A model generated the notes under the pieces. That model was not told where the DNA came from. It was given only the letters and a program-made list of their open reading frames with translations, and did not search any database. Position numbers and translations under genes: made by a program. A DNA stretch of 5,329 nucleotides from a virus (lineage: Duplodnaviria; Heunggongvirae; Uroviricota; Caudoviricetes), in IMG/VR virus record IMGVR_UViG_2913177423_000004; one strand, written 5' to 3'. The first letter of the stretch is position 1; the number at the start of each line of letters is the position of its first letter. Positions 1 through 5,329 of the stretch are shown piece by piece.

Positions 1-1
1 G

Positions 2-166
2 CCAGTTTTTGTTGACCACTACAACGTTGACCTGGCCGCCAGCGGCGTTGCCTACAAAGAGCGGATGAATATACCGGTAATTGCAGAACAGGTAGCCCGT
101 GAGCAACCGGAGAACTTGCACACCTATTTCATGGAACGGCTACGATACTGGCCGGCGTTGAATTAA
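2..166 (+). CDS. 3' end of an upstream phage gene (partial; start lies outside the window), product unknown
   Basis: Frame-2 reading frame is open from the window edge to TAA at 164..166 (54 sense codons, ...[13 protein letters not shown]). GC-rich third codon positions. Absent from the ORF track because it is truncated. Product not recognised. Confidence 0.4.
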
Positions 167-272: not shown

Positions 273-438
273 AATATGCCACAAAGGTTTTTGTTAACGA
301 GCTGCATCTTTTTCTTTTCTGGGTGATGATTGTTTTATAATAAACAAATAACAACATTTATTCTTGTAAAAGTAATAATATCTCTTTGGTGATCGAATTT
401 ATTGATCGCATTTCAATTAAACAAATAAGGAGTTTTTT

Positions 439-1140
439 ATGCCCAAAATTACCGGTGTTCTAGTGAGCCACCATGTGTTCGATATAAAAAAAGACATGGC
501 TAATGGTTCATTCCCGAAAACATTATTTCCAGGCGCGACATTTCAGATGGTGGTTGACAATGATGTTGTCAATAATAATACGTTGGACTGGAGTGTTGTC
601 ACCAATGCGGGAGACAATTCGCTGACTGTAAATCAGGACGGCGTGGTGTCATTTTCAAATGATATTGATGAAAGTTGCATTGGTAAAACATTTGTTATTT
701 TTGCGAAGGATAAAGCCACAGGGAAAAATGTGTCATCTTATTTAATTAAACCTTATCGCTTCTTTAAACCTCGTACCGCAACGTCGGACAGATTTTACGA
801 TGCATTGTTTTGGATTGAGGATAAAAAAGGGACTGTCCCGGCACGACGCGATATCAATAATGTCCCTTTCGATGAACTGACGGGAGAAATGTTTCATGAT
901 GTAAAACGTGAAGTGAATTCCGGGCTTTTTCAGGAATGGGGATTTTTACTGTTTAGTGGGTGGACTAATCCTGTACGTGGTGATATTGGTAGTCTCGAAT
1001 CAGAAATTTTCACTTTAGAAAATGACAGTATATTTATATCGACAGTCAACTCCCTCCCATACTCCAGAGATCTCCATGATGATATGGACTCCCAGTCTGC
1101 ACAGGCTGTAGCGTTTTACGGGGAATCTGTTGTTTCCTGA
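439..1140 (+). CDS. Hypothetical protein, 233 aa, AT-rich orphan gene; possible beta-rich Ig-like N-terminal region; function unknown
   Basis: ATG at 439 is preceded by a strong Shine-Dalgarno (taaggag at 426..432, 6-nt spacer). Uninterrupted 233-codon frame ending TGA at 1138..1140. Composition is visibly more AT-rich than int or ybhC. No signal peptide and no catalytic motif that I can name. Residues ~30-100 (ATFQMVVDNDVV...LDWSVVTNAGDNSLTVNQDGVVSF...) have the alternating pattern of a bacterial Ig-like domain, but this is an impression, not a match. Confidence 0.8.
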   Translation: MPKITGVLVSHHVFDIKKDMANGSFPKTLFPGATFQMVVDNDVVNNNTLDWSVVTNAGDNSLTVNQDGVVSFSNDIDESCIGKTFVIFAKDKATGKNVSSYLIKPYRFFKPRTATSDRFYDALFWIEDKKGTVPARRDINNVPFDELTGEMFHDVKREVNSGLFQEWGFLLFSGWTNPVRGDIGSLESEIFTLENDSIFISTVNSLPYSRDLHDDMDSQSAQAVAFYGESVVS

Positions 1141-1162
1141 TGTTTTAATGAGTTTTTAATAG

Positions 1163-1193
1163 TCTCCGTCTTTTTAATTTAAAGAGACGGAGA
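1163..1193. terminator. Palindromic stem-loop 23 bp after the 233-aa ORF; possible terminator or protein/RNase site
   Basis: tctccgtcttttt (1163..1175) pairs with aaagagacggaga (1181..1193): 13 bp including one G-U pair, loop aattt. It is not followed by a clean T-tract on either strand, so it is not a canonical intrinsic terminator. Confidence 0.35.
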
Positions 1194-1225
1194 TTATCGG
1201 CTCTGCAACGTGAAGCTCAGGAACA

Positions 1226-1305
1226 AAGGTTGTGTCGCGTTAACGGTGGAAAGTCAGCAAAAGTTGTATTGCTGGCTTTTCATGCAGCCAGCAGATAAAT
1301 TGTTC
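1226..1305. repeat. Right arm of the long inverted repeat; perfect 32-bp core at 1226..1257, then a ~34-bp insertion, then the extended match
   Basis: 1226..1257 is the exact reverse complement of 241..272. 1258..1291 has no counterpart on the left and contains its own small hairpin (gctggc ... gccagc). 1292..1305 resumes the match to 226..240. Confidence 0.85.
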
Positions 1306-1476
1306 CGCGGGTGACAGCCATTACCGCGAAGGCATATTGCAAGGGGCGTTGCTTGTGGTCGATTCCTCACTCACTCCAGTTGATGGTTCGCTGCTTGTAT
1401 GTGCTTATCGCATAAAGAGATATCGGAAGCATCCGCGCCGCTATGATTGTCTTTCTCCTGATGCAGGAAAAGCAGA

Positions 1477-1791
1477 ATGGCTAAATCAGCAGCAGAGCGC
1501 AAAGCCGATCAGAGAGCCAAGCAAGCATCATCCGGTATGCGTAAGCTGGAGCTTGTACTTGATGCTCAGGAAATTGAAATGCTGGAGCGTAACTGTGCCA
1601 CGCGTCGCTTCAGGCGTGCGCCTTACGAGTTTGGTGAGTACATCGCGTTACTGAGCCGCCAGGATGATGCACTTGTGCGCTGGCGTATAAAATCGATCAG
1701 CATAAAACGTTGCGGTAAGTGCGGCGAGAGAGTTCCTGTTAATTCATGCCCGTGTAATGGTGACTCACAATGCTGGGTGACCAAAGGCTGA
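1477..1791 (+). CDS. Hypothetical small protein, 104 aa, charged helical N-terminal part plus C-terminal Cys cluster (putative zinc ribbon); possibly an Ea8.5-like protein
   Basis: ATG at 1477 with AGGA at 1465..1468 (8-nt spacer); stop TGA at 1789..1791. C-terminus RCGKCGERVPVNSCPCNGDSQC has a C-x2-C-x8-C-x-C-x5-C spacing typical of a zinc-binding knuckle. The overlapping ORF 1337..1654 in another frame looks non-protein-like. An alternative start at the internal Met (codon 21, nt 1537) cannot be excluded. The Ea8.5 comparison is from memory of its described homeodomain/zinc-finger fold, not from sequence alignment. Confidence 0.6.
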   Translation: MAKSAAERKADQRAKQASSGMRKLELVLDAQEIEMLERNCATRRFRRAPYEFGEYIALLSRQDDALVRWRIKSISIKRCGKCGERVPVNSCPCNGDSQCWVTKG

Positions 1792-1820
1792 TTCGAATTT
1801 AAGAACTGAAAGAACACCAA

Positions 1821-1841
1821 GCCGCCTGATGGCGGTTTTTT
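1821..1841 (+). terminator. Rho-independent terminator-like hairpin (GC stem + T6)
   Basis: gccgcc tgat ggcgg followed by tttttt (1836..1841), 30 bp downstream of the 104-aa ORF stop. The first in-frame ATG of the next ORF (1829) lies inside this stem-loop, so it is unlikely to be the real start. Confidence 0.6.
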
Positions 1842-1855
1842 ATTGGAGACAAGAA

Positions 1856-2200
1856 ATGTCAGATTTGGCTATGAAGATTTTGAAATGGCAAACGACTGGC
1901 GATGTCGGCATCAGTAGCGCAACTCTTGCCTCAATCGCATGTGGACTGAAAAAGAATATCTATGGTCATCACTTCGGTGCTCCACATGACGCAGCCGATT
2001 TCCGACGATGCGTTGCACTTGTTGAGCAGATTCCAGAAATCAGAGATTCATTCGACAAGGTTGCAAAGCGCGTTCCGGCATTCAAAGGCATCCTCAACGA
2101 ATGGGATTCTCTCGTTGCTCTGTTGAAGTCTGAAATGAAGATACACGGAAACAAAGCACCAGAAACTTACAGAAGAATTAGCGAGCTACGCAAGTACTAA
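1856..2200 (+). CDS. Hypothetical protein, 114 aa (MSDLAMKILKWQ...), function unknown
   Basis: ATG at 1856 preceded by GGAG at 1845..1848 (7-nt spacer); stop TAA at 2198..2200. The ORF track starts it at 1829 (123 aa), but that ATG is inside the upstream terminator hairpin. The gene is followed by two hairpins (2206..2224 and 2259..2279). Product not recognised. Confidence 0.7.
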   Translation: MSDLAMKILKWQTTGDVGISSATLASIACGLKKNIYGHHFGAPHDAADFRRCVALVEQIPEIRDSFDKVAKRVPAFKGILNEWDSLVALLKSEMKIHGNKAPETYRRISELRKY

Positions 2201-2258: not shown

Positions 2259-2279
2259 GCCGCATCAATGCGGCTTTTT
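2259..2279 (+). terminator. Rho-independent terminator-like hairpin (stem + T5) immediately upstream of the pI / xis region
   Basis: gccgca tcaa tgcggc followed by ttttt (2275..2279). A second hairpin (gcctca cactcga tgaggc, 2206..2224) sits directly after the stop codon of the 114-aa gene. Confidence 0.55.
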
Positions 2280-2280
2280 C

Positions 2281-2294
2281 TTGCGTGTAATTGC
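2281..2294 (+). promoter_or_regulatory. cII-binding box (TTGC-N6-TTGC) of the int promoter pI
   Basis: ttgc gtgtaa ttgc at 2281..2294, immediately upstream of and overlapping the xis translation initiation region. This matches the established arrangement of lambda pI, where the cII-activated promoter overlaps the start of xis so that the transcript encodes Int but not Xis. Confidence 0.65.
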
Positions 2295-2306
2295 GGAGAC
2301 TTTGCG

Positions 2307-2525
2307 ATGTACTTGACACTTCAGGAGTGGAACGCACGCCAGCGACGCCCAAGAAGCCTTGAAACAGTTCGTCGATGGGTACGCGAGTGCAGGATATTCC
2401 CTCCTCCGGTTAAAGATGGAAGAGAGTATCTGTTCCACGAATCAGCGGTAAAGGTTGACTTAAATCGACCAGTAACAGGTAGCCTTTTGAAGAGGATCAA
2501 AAATGGGAAGAAGGCGAAGTCATGA
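2307..2525 (+). CDS. xis: Excisionase Xis (lambda-type), 72 aa
   Basis: Protein MYLTLQEWNARQRRPRSLETVRRWVRECRIFPPPVKDGREYLFHESAVKVDLNRPVTGSLLKRIKNGKKAKS matches lambda Xis as I recall it. GGAG at 2295..2298 precedes the ATG at 2307. The ORF-track start at 2268 lies inside the upstream terminator hairpin and is rejected. The 3' end overlaps the int start by 23 bp, as in lambda. Confidence 0.95.
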   Translation: MYLTLQEWNARQRRPRSLETVRRWVRECRIFPPPVKDGREYLFHESAVKVDLNRPVTGSLLKRIKNGKKAKS

Positions 2526-3573
2526 GCGCCGGGATTTACCCCCTAATCTTTATATAAGAAACAATGGATATTACTGCTACAGGGACCCAAGGACGGGTAA
2601 AGAGTTTGGATTAGGCCGAGACAGGAGGATAGCAATCACTGAAGCTATACAGGCCAACATTGAGTTATTTTCAGGACACAAGCACAAGCCTCTGACAGCG
2701 AGAATCAACAGTGATAATTCTGTTACGTTACATTCATGGCTTGATCGCTACGAAAAAATCCTCGCCAGCAGAGGAATCAAGCAGAAGACACTCATAAATT
2801 ACATGAGCAAAATTAAAGCAATAAGGAGGGGTCTGCCTGATGCTCCACTTGAAGACATCACCACAAAAGAAATTGCGGCAATGCTCAATGGATACATAGA
2901 CGAGGGCAAGGCGGCGTCAGCCAAGTTAATCAGATCAACACTGAGCGATGCATTCCGAGAGGCAATAGCTGAAGGCCATATAACAACAAACCCGGTCGCT
3001 GCCACTCGCGCAGCAAAATCAGAGGTAAGGAGATCAAGACTTACGGCTGACGAATACCTGAAAATTTATCAAGCAGCAGAATCATCACCATGTTGGCTCA
3101 GACTTGCAATGGAACTGGCTGTTGTTACCGGGCAGCGAGTTGGTGATTTATGCGAAATGAAGTGGTCTGATATCGTAGATGGATATCTTTATGTCGAGCA
3201 AAGCAAAACAGGCGTAAAAATTGCCATCCCTACAACATTGCATGTTGATGCTCTCGGGATATCAATGAAGGAAACACTTGATAAATGCAAAGAGATTCTT
3301 GGCGGAGAAACCATAATTGCATCTACTCGTCGTGAACCGCTTTCATCCGGCACAGTATCAAGGTATTTTATGCGCGCACGAAAAGCATCAGGTCTTTCCT
3401 TCGAAGGGGATCCGCCAACCTTTCACGAGTTGCGCAGTTTGTCTGCAAGACTCTATGAGAAGCAGATAAGCGATAAATTTGCTCAACATCTTCTCGGGCA
3501 TAAGTCGGACACCATGGCATCACAGTATCGTGATGACAGAGGCAGGGAGTGGGACAAAATTGAAATCAAATAA
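2503..3573 (+). CDS. int: Tyrosine site-specific integrase Int (lambda-type), 356 aa
   Basis: Protein MGRRRSHERRDLPPNLYIRNNGYYCYRDPRTGKEFGLGRD...HLLGHKSDTMASQYRDDRGREWDKIEIK matches lambda Int in length and sequence as far as I can recall, including the C-terminal catalytic region (R...HxxR...Y). GAGG at 2492..2495 precedes the ATG at 2503. Confidence 0.97.
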   Translation: MGRRRSHERRDLPPNLYIRNNGYYCYRDPRTGKEFGLGRDRRIAITEAIQANIELFSGHKHKPLTARINSDNSVTLHSWLDRYEKILASRGIKQKTLINYMSKIKAIRRGLPDAPLEDITTKEIAAMLNGYIDEGKAASAKLIRSTLSDAFREAIAEGHITTNPVAATRAAKSEVRRSRLTADEYLKIYQAAESSPCWLRLAMELAVVTGQRVGDLCEMKWSDIVDGYLYVEQSKTGVKIAIPTTLHVDALGISMKETLDKCKEILGGETIIASTRREPLSSGTVSRYFMRARKASGLSFEGDPPTFHELRSLSARLYEKQISDKFAQHLLGHKSDTMASQYRDDRGREWDKIEIK

Positions 3574-3646: not shown

Positions 3647-3661
3647 TTAGTATAAAAAAGC
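3647..3661 (-). other. att common core (15 bp) of attL, the phage/host junction
   Basis: ttagtataaaaaagc is the reverse complement of the lambda core GCTTTTTTATACTAA. It is preceded by gccaac (reverse complement of the P' start GTTGGC) and followed by aggcttcaacg (reverse complement of the attB B-arm CGTTGAAGCCT). Confidence 0.9.
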
Positions 3662-3708: not shown

Positions 3709-4992
3709 GTGAACACATTTTCAGTTTCCCGTCTGGCGCTGGCACTGGCTTTTGGCGTGACGCTGACCGCCTGTAGCTCAACACCGCCCGATCAACGTCC
3801 TTCTGATCAAACCGCGCCTGGTACCTCTTCTCGCCCGATTCTGTCGGCAAAAGAAGCGCAGAATTTCGATGCTCAACACTATTTTGCATCCCTGACACCA
3901 GGTGCTGCAGCGTGGAATCCTTCCCCGATTACCCTGCCTGCGCAACCTGACTTTGTTGTCGGCCCGGCGGGTACCCAAGGTGTAACGCATACCACGATTC
4001 AGGCAGCGGTGGATGCGGCAATTATCAAGCGTACCAACAAGCGCCAGTATATTGCCGTGATGCCTGGTGAGTATGAAGGCACGGTCTATGTCCCTGCCGC
4101 TCCGGGTGGAATTACTCTGTACGGTACAGGTGAAAAACCGATTGATGTGAAGATTGGGCTTTCCCTTGATGGGAGCATGAGCCCTGCCGACTGGCGTCAC
4201 GACGTCAACCCGCGCGGCAAATATATGCCAGGTAAACCAGCGTGGTACATGTACGATAGCTGCCAGAGCAAACGCAGCGACAGTATTGGCGTGCTCTGTT
4301 CTGCGGTTTTCTGGTCACAAAACAATGGCCTGCAACTGCAAAACCTGACCATCGAAAACACGCTGGGCGATAGCGTAGATGCGGGTAACCATCCGGCGGT
4401 GGCACTGCGTACTGATGGCGACAAAGTGCAGATCAATAACGTCAACATTCTCGGTCGTCAGAACACCTTCTTTGTCACCAACAGTGGTGTGCAAAACCGT
4501 CTGGAAACCAATCGTCAACCGCGTACTCTGGTGACGAATAGCTATATTGAAGGGGATGTGGATATCGTTTCTGGTCGCGGCGCGGTGGTGTTCGATAATA
4601 CCGAATTCCGCGTGGTGAACTCCCGTACTCAGCAAGAAGCGTATGTGTTTGCACCGGCTACGCTGTCTAACATCTATTACGGTTTCCTCGCCGTAAACAG
4701 CCGTTTCAATGCTTCCGGTGATGGCGTGGCGCAACTGGGCCGCTCGCTGGATGTTGATGCCAATACCAACGGTCAGGTGGTGATCCGTGATAGCGCCATC
4801 AACGAAGGTTTTAACACGGCTAAACCGTGGGCCGATGCGGTGATTTCCAATCGTCCATTTGCGGGTAATACCGGCAGCGTTGACGATAGCGACGAAGTAC
4901 AGCGCAATCTGAATGACACTAACTACAACCGCATGTGGGAATACAATAACCGCGGCGTGGGTAGCAAAGTGGTTGCAGAAGCGAAGAAGTAA
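3709..4992 (+). CDS. ybhC: Outer-membrane lipoprotein YbhC (pectinesterase-family fold, putative acyl-CoA thioesterase), 427 aa
   Basis: GTG start at 3709 with GGAG at 3699..3702. N-terminus MNTFSVSRLALALAFGVTLTAC has a lipoprotein signal peptide and lipobox (LTAC). Length and sequence match E. coli YbhC as I recall it. It is the host gene adjacent to the lambda attachment site on the gal side. Confidence 0.93.
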   Translation: MNTFSVSRLALALAFGVTLTACSSTPPDQRPSDQTAPGTSSRPILSAKEAQNFDAQHYFASLTPGAAAWNPSPITLPAQPDFVVGPAGTQGVTHTTIQAAVDAAIIKRTNKRQYIAVMPGEYEGTVYVPAAPGGITLYGTGEKPIDVKIGLSLDGSMSPADWRHDVNPRGKYMPGKPAWYMYDSCQSKRSDSIGVLCSAVFWSQNNGLQLQNLTIENTLGDSVDAGNHPAVALRTDGDKVQINNVNILGRQNTFFVTNSGVQNRLETNRQPRTLVTNSYIEGDVDIVSGRGAVVFDNTEFRVVNSRTQQEAYVFAPATLSNIYYGFLAVNSRFNASGDGVAQLGRSLDVDANTNGQVVIRDSAINEGFNTAKPWADAVISNRPFAGNTGSVDDSDEVQRNLNDTNYNRMWEYNNRGVGSKVVAEAKK

Positions 4993-5008
4993 GAGCTATT
5001 AACTATTT

Positions 5009-5285
5009 GCCGGATGCGGTGTAAACGCCTTATCCGGCCTACGGTTCGATGCGATTTGTAGGTCGGATAAGATGCGCAAGCATCGCATCCGACAATAAGT
5101 GCCGAAATGCGGCGTAAACGCCTTATCCGGACTACGGTTCGATGCGATTTGTAGGTCGGATAAGATGCGCAAGCATCGCATCCGACAATAAATGCCGGAT
5201 GCGGCGTGACCGCCTTATCCGGCCTACGGTTCGATGCGATTTGTAGGTCGGATAAGATGCGCAAGCATCGCATCCGACAATAAGT
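5009..5285. repeat. Three tandem REP/BIME units (about 92 bp each), the E. coli repetitive extragenic palindrome cluster downstream of ybhC
   Basis: Units at 5009..5100, 5101..5193 and 5194..5285. Each contains gccggatgcggcgtaaacgccttatccggcctac (the canonical REP palindrome) followed by a second palindromic unit ...gtaggtcggataagatgcgcaagcatcgcatccgac.... A partial fourth copy starts at 5286. The minus-strand ORFs 4923..5273 and 4999..5181 are artefacts of these repeats. Confidence 0.9.
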
Positions 5286-5329
5286 GCCGGATGTGTAGTG
5301 GCATAGTAAATTTGGCCACCTGAATAGAG

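Follow-up and report, generated by a model that had tools for sequence, protein, structure and literature searches.

A leaderless, prophage-borne homologue of the invasin/intimin ligand-binding head in Escherichia and its possible partnership with an ADP-ribosyltransferase

Profile comparisons show the 233-aa protein ORF233, encoded on a cassette in a lambdoid prophage, to be a homologue of the ligand-binding head of invasin and intimin, predicted to be soluble and made up of two domains, an Ig-like domain (D4) and a C-type-lectin-like domain (CTLD, D5). The Invasin_D4 family and the fold of the invasin/intimin head are known; an adhesin head as a stand-alone, leaderless and prophage-borne protein appears to be new. 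A search of the accessible literature gave no description of stand-alone invasin-head proteins, of their carriage by prophages or of their pairing with an ADP-ribosyltransferase (ART). With a probability of about one in three, the ORF233 family binds and neutralises a DNA-targeting ART, in which case the prophage gene would be an orphan protective copy.

The window (the whole stretch of DNA that was analysed, 5,329 nucleotides) covers the int-proximal end of a lambdoid prophage that occupies the lambda attachment site. Its features are as follows:

1-163, plus strand: 3' end of a homologue of DNA polymerase III theta (holE / P1 hot-like), NCBIfam PRK10969, E=6e-21
178-272: left inverted-repeat arm, from repeat search and pairwise alignment
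273-1225, plus strand: low-GC moron cassette of 953 bp between the repeat cores, GC 0.38, found in both orientations
327-438, plus strand: A/T-rich upstream region, presumed to be the cassette's own promoter, conserved with the ART-linked paralogues
439-1140, plus strand: ORF233, ATG start
439-756, plus strand (residues 1-106): Ig-like beta-sandwich, homologue of invasin domain 4, from Pfam, the 1CWV D4 profile match and pLDDT
757-1140, plus strand (residues 107-233 and stop): predicted CTLD similar to invasin D5 / intimin D3, without the conserved disulfide
1159-1197: hairpin with 19-nt arms 3' of the ORF233 stop, a possible terminator without a clear T-run, from repeat search
1226-1345: right inverted-repeat arm, the 34-bp core followed by decayed humD 5' coding sequence
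1260-1476, plus strand: pseudogene remnant of HumD (phage UmuD'-like), NCBIfam HumD E=2e-12 from 1337 onwards
1477-2200, plus strand: two small phage genes, 104 aa (phrog_536, 'transcriptional regulator') and 123/114 aa (phrog_1229)
2268-2525, plus strand: xis, from Pfam
2503-3573, plus strand: lambda-type int, from Pfam
3647-3661, minus strand: lambda att core GCTTTTTTATACTAA, from att core search
3709-4992: ybhC, E. coli match, adjoining the prophage end

ORF233 is a real gene, as the sequence-only reading of this DNA had held from its Shine-Dalgarno (SD) sequence and long frame. The motif AAGGAG lies at 427-432, with the ATG 6 nt further on, and the open frame spans 239 codons, against 150 in the best of 2000 shuffles of the cassette. 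Homologues at 40-94% identity share its start and length, and dN/dS among the homologues is 0.1-0.45 (pairs with unsaturated dS); together these indicate a coding gene under selection. The start codon, the SD sequence and the length (218-233 aa) are kept even across clades of the family that are 40-46% identical. The low GC content noted in the same reading also holds, at 0.41 against 0.45 in int, 0.48 in xis and 0.535 in ybhC. The GC content is 0.52 in the neighbouring 104-aa gene and 0.27 in the region upstream of ORF233.

Residues 23-101 match Pfam PF21764 Invasin_D4 with 35.4 bits (E=1.6e-8; the curated gathering cutoff is 27 bits). This agrees with the Ig-like N-terminal region suspected from the sequence alone, and the label of an orphan without a family no longer applies, since the two protein searches together define a family of at least 15 clusters. 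The word-indexed search of 5.8 billion proteins returned only 14 clusters of the family, whose source name, where given, is always Escherichia, whose proteins are 218-233 aa long except in one truncated cluster, and 13 of which carry a precomputed Invasin_D4 assignment. An exhaustive HMM search with the family profile (1.8 billion representatives) gave 51 matches, namely a few extra members and 40-odd distant proteins. The long distant matches are inverse autotransporters with IAT_beta, Big_1, Invasin_D3 and Invasin_D4 domains (E 1e-4 to 1e-10 in the 1.8 billion-protein library). They match profile positions of approximately 3-178, followed by 35-55 residues to the C-terminus, and this placement near the adhesin C-termini indicates that the whole of ORF233 is collinear with the terminal two-domain head. 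In type Ve proteins such as P0031, P0034, P0042, P0048 and P0064 the C-terminal ~200 residues align with all of ORF233; these proteins have IAT_beta barrels, LysM domains, Big_1 stalks and the Cys pair, whereas the members of the ORF233 family are stand-alone and leaderless.

A joint alignment (A2) of 15 sequences of the ORF233 family and 27 adhesin heads shows several elements common to both groups: a 'FPxTGFxGAxFQ' strand, a 'RWF' linker, a 'DA..W' helix and a 'LWxEWG...GW' loop. When compared with the PDB, the mixed A2 profile matched residues 302-475 (D4-D5) of Yersinia invasin 1CWV with E=5e-38 and the Tir-binding heads of intimin at about 1e-9. The profile built from the family only, run against PDB sequences, matched D4 of 1CWV with E=5e-8 and otherwise gave only a sub-threshold but in-register 'WGEWG' match. 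The C-terminal half of the family aligned with the adhesin D5 profile (hhalign) at a probability of 92% and E=5e-7, over 25 columns only. AlphaFold supplied with the 14-sequence family alignment modelled the Ig domain only, and the C-terminal domain did not fold; with an alignment that includes adhesin heads, the predicted two-domain fold superposes on invasin D4-D5 and the intimin head, so that the CTLD model depends on the presence of adhesin head sequences. The Ig-like domain is predicted at pLDDT 90-97. The C-terminal half, considered unassignable in the sequence-only reading, is thus collinear with and modelled onto invasin D5 and the intimin head; as a model that leans on adhesin sequences, it is the CTLD equivalent of D5. 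A structure search of BFVD gave generic Ig-domain matches only. Comparison of ORF233 with PHROGs, PADLOC and NCBIfam gave no match, and PADLOC-DB v2 at E<=1 gave none for ORF233, its two downstream neighbours or the Scabin-like ART described below.

The assignment to an adhesin fold does not make ORF233 an adhesin. An inverse-autotransporter adhesin was considered and rejected, as the protein has no signal peptide, beta-barrel, stalk or head disulfide. In Pfam only Invasin_D4 was matched, and IAT_beta (PF11924), LysM, Big_1 and Invasin_D3 were not. The N-terminus, MPKITGVLVSHHVFDIKKDM, shows no hydrophobic core (mean Kyte-Doolittle value of 0.17 for the first 20 residues), and the earlier statement that leader and transmembrane segments are lacking is borne out by Kyte-Doolittle hydropathy, on which both were judged, with a maximum of 0.67 for a 19-residue window. 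No adhesin sequence lies upstream of an ORF233-family gene in any locus examined. In A2, both Cys residues of the CTLD disulfide, one in the 'WC' helix and one in the C-terminal 'VC' strand, are present in most of the 27 adhesin heads. All 15 sequences of the ORF233 family have I or V in place of the first (W[IV]), and in all 15 the C-terminal strand lacks the second (AQAVA[FS]Y); ORF233 holds a single Cys, C80. Replacement of the pair throughout the family fits folding in the reducing cytoplasm, and ORF233 is presumably a soluble cytoplasmic binding module. A textbook extracellular receptor-binding head in the form of a leaderless, disulfide-free protein that is under purifying selection, is spread by prophages and has paralogues paired with a DNA-targeting ART suggests re-use inside the cell as a specific protein binder. 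An earlier expectation was that a confident profile match to a family unrelated to phage-host conflict would speak against a role in such conflict. A match of that kind, to an adhesin head, was formally obtained; however, ORF233 lacks every other part of an adhesin, so the match is informative on the fold but not on the role.

The same differences stand out against the individual adhesins. In Yersinia pseudotuberculosis invasin, D4-D5 (1CWV) is the superdomain that binds beta1 integrins at the tip of a surface protein of ~986 aa, which has a signal peptide, a beta-barrel, an Ig stalk and a disulfide in D5, none of which is found in ORF233. The Tir-binding head of intimin (Eae of EPEC/EHEC; 1F00, 1F02, 2ZQK, 2ZWK, 3NCX) is more distant than invasin, at 11-14% identity. 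Intimin, a product of the LEE, is anchored at the surface and contains a disulfide, and no Tir-like partner is present beside ORF233.

The ORF233 family is small, is restricted to Escherichia and occurs mainly in cryptic lineages. Of 185,579 species representatives, just three carry it: Escherichia sp. E1V33 with 5 copies, E. whittamii with 3 (one or more of them truncated, and a further one interrupted by a premature stop) and E. ruysiae with 1. Escherichia sp. E1V33 holds both the prophage allele (100%) and an allele at 71%. No copy was detected when the alleles of the window and of locus L004 were compared with 5,426 complete E. coli genomes (megablast, blastn), and tblastn of ORF233 found no match among the INPHARED phages or the PLSDB plasmids. 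At least 16 contigs code for the identical ORF233 protein, as do seven IMG/VR prophage contigs. In six assemblies a block made up of theta, ORF233, the 104-aa gene and the 114-aa gene is shared at 98-99.7% DNA identity. The theta-ORF233 block ends the early-left (pL) operon N-ral-cIII-kil-recombination-ssb-abc, in prophages that have different integrases and occupy five sites (ybhC, yniD, fliE, proA, mdtA). The more distant members, at 40-46% identity, occur in other settings: next to a serine recombinase in the nin region of a prophage, on a plasmid-like Rep3/TraF contig and in a chromosomal islet between ybcH and emrE.

Within the prophage the cassette interrupts a humD gene. The theta gene at its left is ~89% identical in DNA to theta of P1-like plasmids over 23-149, is called as PF06440 in all sister prophages, and extends by its last few codons into the inverted, humD-like repeat arm. 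The outer part of the left arm (178-238) is a diverged inverted copy of the humD 5' end with a 33-nt deletion; in three other loci (L011, L013 and L017) the left arm is ~102 nt long and ~90% identical to the right arm. The perfect repeat core of 34 bp lies at 239-272 on the left and 1226-1259 on the right. Related E. coli prophages match the window from 1312 to 2300 at ~94% and have an intact or pseudo humD there, with no cassette; one of them (L007), homologous from 1312 onwards, carries an intact humD with a LexA box. The presence of humD without the cassette in these relatives marks the 953-bp cassette as an insertion into humD. The 104-aa and 123/114-aa genes travel with the cassette in a shared block of 2.25 kb. 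The arms were also considered as ends of an IS6-family element, which was rejected, since a 39-aa peptide gave no NCBIfam match (E<=10) and the arms align to the humD 5' end. When the repeat core was sought in metagenome contigs, none was found.

DNA homology between the window and the non-prophage paralogues begins at 327-333 and ends at ~1150, within ~10 nt past the stop codon, and a five-way alignment places the hairpin at 1159-1197 where homology to the ART-linked loci ends. A consensus scan found no sigma-70 site on the plus strand of 327-438 and did not call the hairpin as a terminator; autonomous expression of the cassette is therefore something that we infer. That the cassette is a horizontally acquired accessory gene (a moron) is well supported. 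The horizontal origin proposed earlier from the low GC content is strengthened by the conserved upstream region of the gene and by its absence from homologous E. coli prophages with humD, and further by the 98-99.7% identity of the cassette across mosaic prophages that differ in their integrases and occupy five att sites.

The cassette has the orientation of the window in about 13 other loci and is flipped between the same flanks in a 41-kb prophage contig (L031) and in a metagenome contig (L014). In L031 the long form of the arm stands where the window has the short one, and vice versa, which puts the crossover in the outer part of the arm and not in the 34-bp core; a crossover at that position points to homologous recombination between the ~100-nt repeats rather than to a site-specific switch. 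Neither the window nor the shared block contains an invertase gene. A programmed inversion switch of the Hin/Gin type was rejected on these two grounds, the position of the crossover and the lack of an invertase nearby. Either orientation leaves ORF233 and the region upstream of it intact, which argues that the cassette is self-sufficient.

A paralogue of 70% identity, ORF232, lies 60-70 nt upstream of an ART gene and in the same orientation at four loci (L003, L005, L025 and L026). The ART is a leaderless protein of 422-424 aa whose centre is Scabin-like and aligns to ScARP, Scabin, TreX and pierisin-1 through the catalytic [QE]xE strand. ScARP, Scabin, TreX and pierisin-1 are nucleic-acid-targeting ARTs. 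The order of the islet is integrase (minus strand), ORF232, ART and csp, at a fixed chromosomal place. The 329-aa integrase is divergent from ORF232 and ART; the arrangement could be integron-like, and no obvious attC-type GTTRRRY was seen by eye. At two further loci (L027 and L028) an insertion of the IS3 family has cut the ART short and left ORF232 intact. The ART family is small (5 clusters). Its most diverged member (43%, L024) has no ORF232-type gene upstream; an IS element lies there instead, which makes this locus uninformative on the linkage. No ART was found in the window or beside any prophage, plasmid-like or other chromosomal solo copy of the ORF233 family, and no recognised delivery domain (T6SS, CDI etc.) was found on the ART.

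Variation within the family is concentrated in two loops of the CTLD, residues 139-152 and 179-220. Between ORF233 and the ART-linked alleles the Ig domain and the CTLD core are 78-83% identical and the CTLD loops 46-50%; against the distant clade the same loops fall to 0-25% identity, with indels. In intimin and invasin the receptor-binding surface is the tip of the lectin-like domain (1F02, 1CWV). By this analogy the variable CTLD loops are likely to be the binding face of the family.

A role in defence or counter-defence, for which the sequence-only reading had made ORF233 a candidate from its position, has as its one functional lead the pairing of the closest paralogues with a DNA-targeting ART, a pairing that would suit the neutralisation of a toxin. 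On the reading preferred here, ORF233 would be folded and active in the cytoplasm, where its fast-evolving CTLD loops would recognise and bind a protein partner. The ancestral task of the family would have been to bind and neutralise, or otherwise control, an ART of the Scabin/pierisin type, with ORF232 as its co-transcribed upstream partner, and the prophage copy may shield the DNA of the lysogen or of the infecting phage from such an ART, in the manner of an immunity protein or antitoxin. Since an ART that modifies DNA and has no leader requires an inhibitor inside the cell, and ORF232 is the sole neighbour conserved beside it, neutralisation is the best single guess; the survival of ORF232 where an IS3-family element has truncated the ART counts in the same direction. 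Against neutralisation, the link is essentially confined to one conserved islet, so that the adjacency amounts to a single evolutionary observation; the loops of the window and of the ART-linked alleles are only ~50% identical, so that the target may differ; and the solo copies have no accompanying ART. Almost equal in weight is the possibility that ORF233 is a cytoplasmic binder of a target unrelated to the ART, which sequesters a host or phage protein and serves, for example, in superinfection exclusion, anti-defence or the modulation of replication or repair. In that case the adjacency to the ART would reflect a single specialised application of a scaffold that is versatile in what it binds. 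Most members of the family are indeed solo and lie in unrelated mobile contexts (nin, Rep3/TraF, ybcH-emrE), the CTLD loops are hypervariable between clades, several paralogues occur per genome (5 in Escherichia sp. E1V33, 3 in E. whittamii), and ORF233 itself sits among accessory genes of the pL operon, where its neighbours are theta, HumD, Abc and Ssb. However, nothing positive points to a particular target, PADLOC and PHROG gave no match, and the reasoning is purely positional.

It is rather unlikely that ORF233 is a released extracellular factor that binds cells, freed by prophage lysis or by a holin-type route, and acts alone as a soluble ligand or competitor or, in the paralogous islet, directs the ART to its target as a B-like component. 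Such a role would agree with the only characterised relatives, which are heads with beta1 integrins and Tir as their receptors (1CWV, 1F02), with the prophage location, which offers lysis as an exit route, and with the size of the ART (424 aa), which has extra beta-rich N- and C-terminal regions; pierisin-type ARTs, moreover, use lectin-type binding domains. However, the loss of both head Cys residues in every member of the family suggests that it is adapted to the cytoplasm, a signal peptide is lacking, most copies are without a toxin that they could deliver, and a leaderless DNA-targeting ART would still need an intracellular inhibitor. Effector-chaperone pairs likewise have the small partner encoded ahead of the large toxin in a single operon, and the homology of the window to the ART locus ends at about the stop codon of ORF233; ORF232 could on these grounds be a chaperone or adaptor that the ART needs in order to fold, stay stable or be exported, with the solo prophage copy a leftover of little function. 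This is improbable, as the protein of the solo allele is 100% conserved across many prophages and under purifying selection, the solo copy keeps its own upstream region, and ORF232 is intact where the ART is destroyed. Very improbable is that ORF233 is a non-functional 3' fragment of a degraded inverse-autotransporter gene. It does correspond to the last ~200 residues of such adhesins, but its start, SD sequence and length are kept across clades of 40-46% identity, dN/dS lies well below 1, none of the loci has adhesin sequence upstream of the gene, both Cys residues are consistently replaced and the upstream region is conserved.

A broader and more doubtful extension of the neutralising role is that of an undescribed two-gene system, in which an immunity protein or antitoxin of the ORF233 family would be paired with the ART and from which prophages would have captured orphan copies on an invertible cassette; the prophage copies would then serve phage counter-defence or protect lysogens against competitors. 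Neutralisation of the ART, if true, would add to the ART inhibitors a new structural class whose origin is the receptor-binding head of an adhesin. A functional link to the ART would represent a new toxin-partner system together with a new type of phage-borne orphan partner; if the link is not functional, ORF233 is a well-delimited hypothetical moron of known fold.

The known immunity proteins and antitoxins of ARTs are ADP-ribosyl-hydrolases or macrodomains, or small unrelated inhibitors. ORF233 differs from these in its combination of an Ig-like domain and a CTLD, and in that no toxin gene is present in the window; we know of no immunity protein with this fold. TreX-TriX, Tre1-Tri1 and DarT-DarG are pairs built around nucleic-acid ARTs (cf. 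PMC11606950). The likeness to pairs of the TreX-TriX type is confined to the paralogous islet, where the leaderless ART is co-oriented with ORF232 at a distance of 60-70 nt. With phage morons the prophage cassette shares an extra gene of deviating GC content between backbone genes, an upstream region of its own, a 3' hairpin and a patchy presence. The lambda genes bor and lom are examples of morons that act in lysogenic conversion. Unlike their products, ORF233 is not a membrane or surface protein, and its cassette lies between inverted repeats of ~100 nt derived from humD and is flipped in some lineages.

The 953-bp cassette that carries the invasin-head ORF occurs in two orientations in public sequences; it is inverted in the 41-kb prophage contig L031 (6100-7300) and the metagenome contig L014, and not inverted in approximately 13 loci. 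The cassette and its borders in the window comprise the following features:

1-163, + strand: homologue of DNA polymerase III theta (holE/P1 hot-like), last gene of the prophage's early-left operon before the cassette
178-272 and 1226-1345: inverted-repeat arms of the cassette, with a perfect 34-bp core and diverged arms of ~100 nt
1260-1476, + strand: HumD (phage UmuD'-like) pseudogene, its 5' part decayed by deletions and the rest frameshifted
1477-2200, + strand: a 104-aa gene (phrog_536, 'transcriptional regulator') and a 123/114-aa gene (phrog_1229, function unknown)

The diverged arms originate from humD 5' sequence, and an intact humD counterpart with a LexA box is present in the E. coli prophage L007 (3400-3645). 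The C-terminal codons of the theta homologue come from the inverted humD-like arm, indicating that the end of this gene was remodelled through cassette insertion. In L031 the long and short arm forms are exchanged, which places the crossover in the outer arm. With the crossover in this position, cassette inversion looks like homologous recombination rather than a site-specific switch. The 104-aa and 123/114-aa genes are constant companions of the cassette within a 2.25-kb block, which is 98-99.7% identical between prophages whose integrases are unrelated.

Leaderless homologues of the invasin-head protein are also found in a conserved islet of cryptic Escherichia:

L003 6614-10034, also L005 and L025-L028: tyrosine recombinase, invasin-head paralogue, ADP-ribosyltransferase (ART) and csp

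The recombinase (329 aa) is divergently oriented and the paralogue measures 232 aa; the leaderless, Scabin/pierisin-like ART (422-424 aa) has uncharacterised N- and C-terminal regions and is truncated by an IS3-family element in L027 and L028. The layout with a divergent integrase could be integron-like. Single genomes carry several diverged paralogues, five in Escherichia sp. E1V33 (L015, L016, L018, L022 and L023) and three in E. whittamii (L017, L020 and L021), some of which are decaying. The L017 paralogue breaks off near residue 120, where a deletion has fused it to a 5'-truncated integrase adjoining torS; the L021 frame is cut short by a premature stop, and both L022 and L023 are fragmentary copies.

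The junction of prophage and chromosome is marked by one feature:

3647-3661, - strand: exact lambda att core GCTTTTTTATACTAA, between int and ybhC

Both E. coli and Escherichia sp. E1V33 match the host flank at ~97.5-98% identity. Downstream of ybhC (5008-5289) a palindromic REP/BIME-like element is present in three tandem ~93-nt copies, 92-97% identical; related copies are also located beside the L003 integrase (6542-6577).
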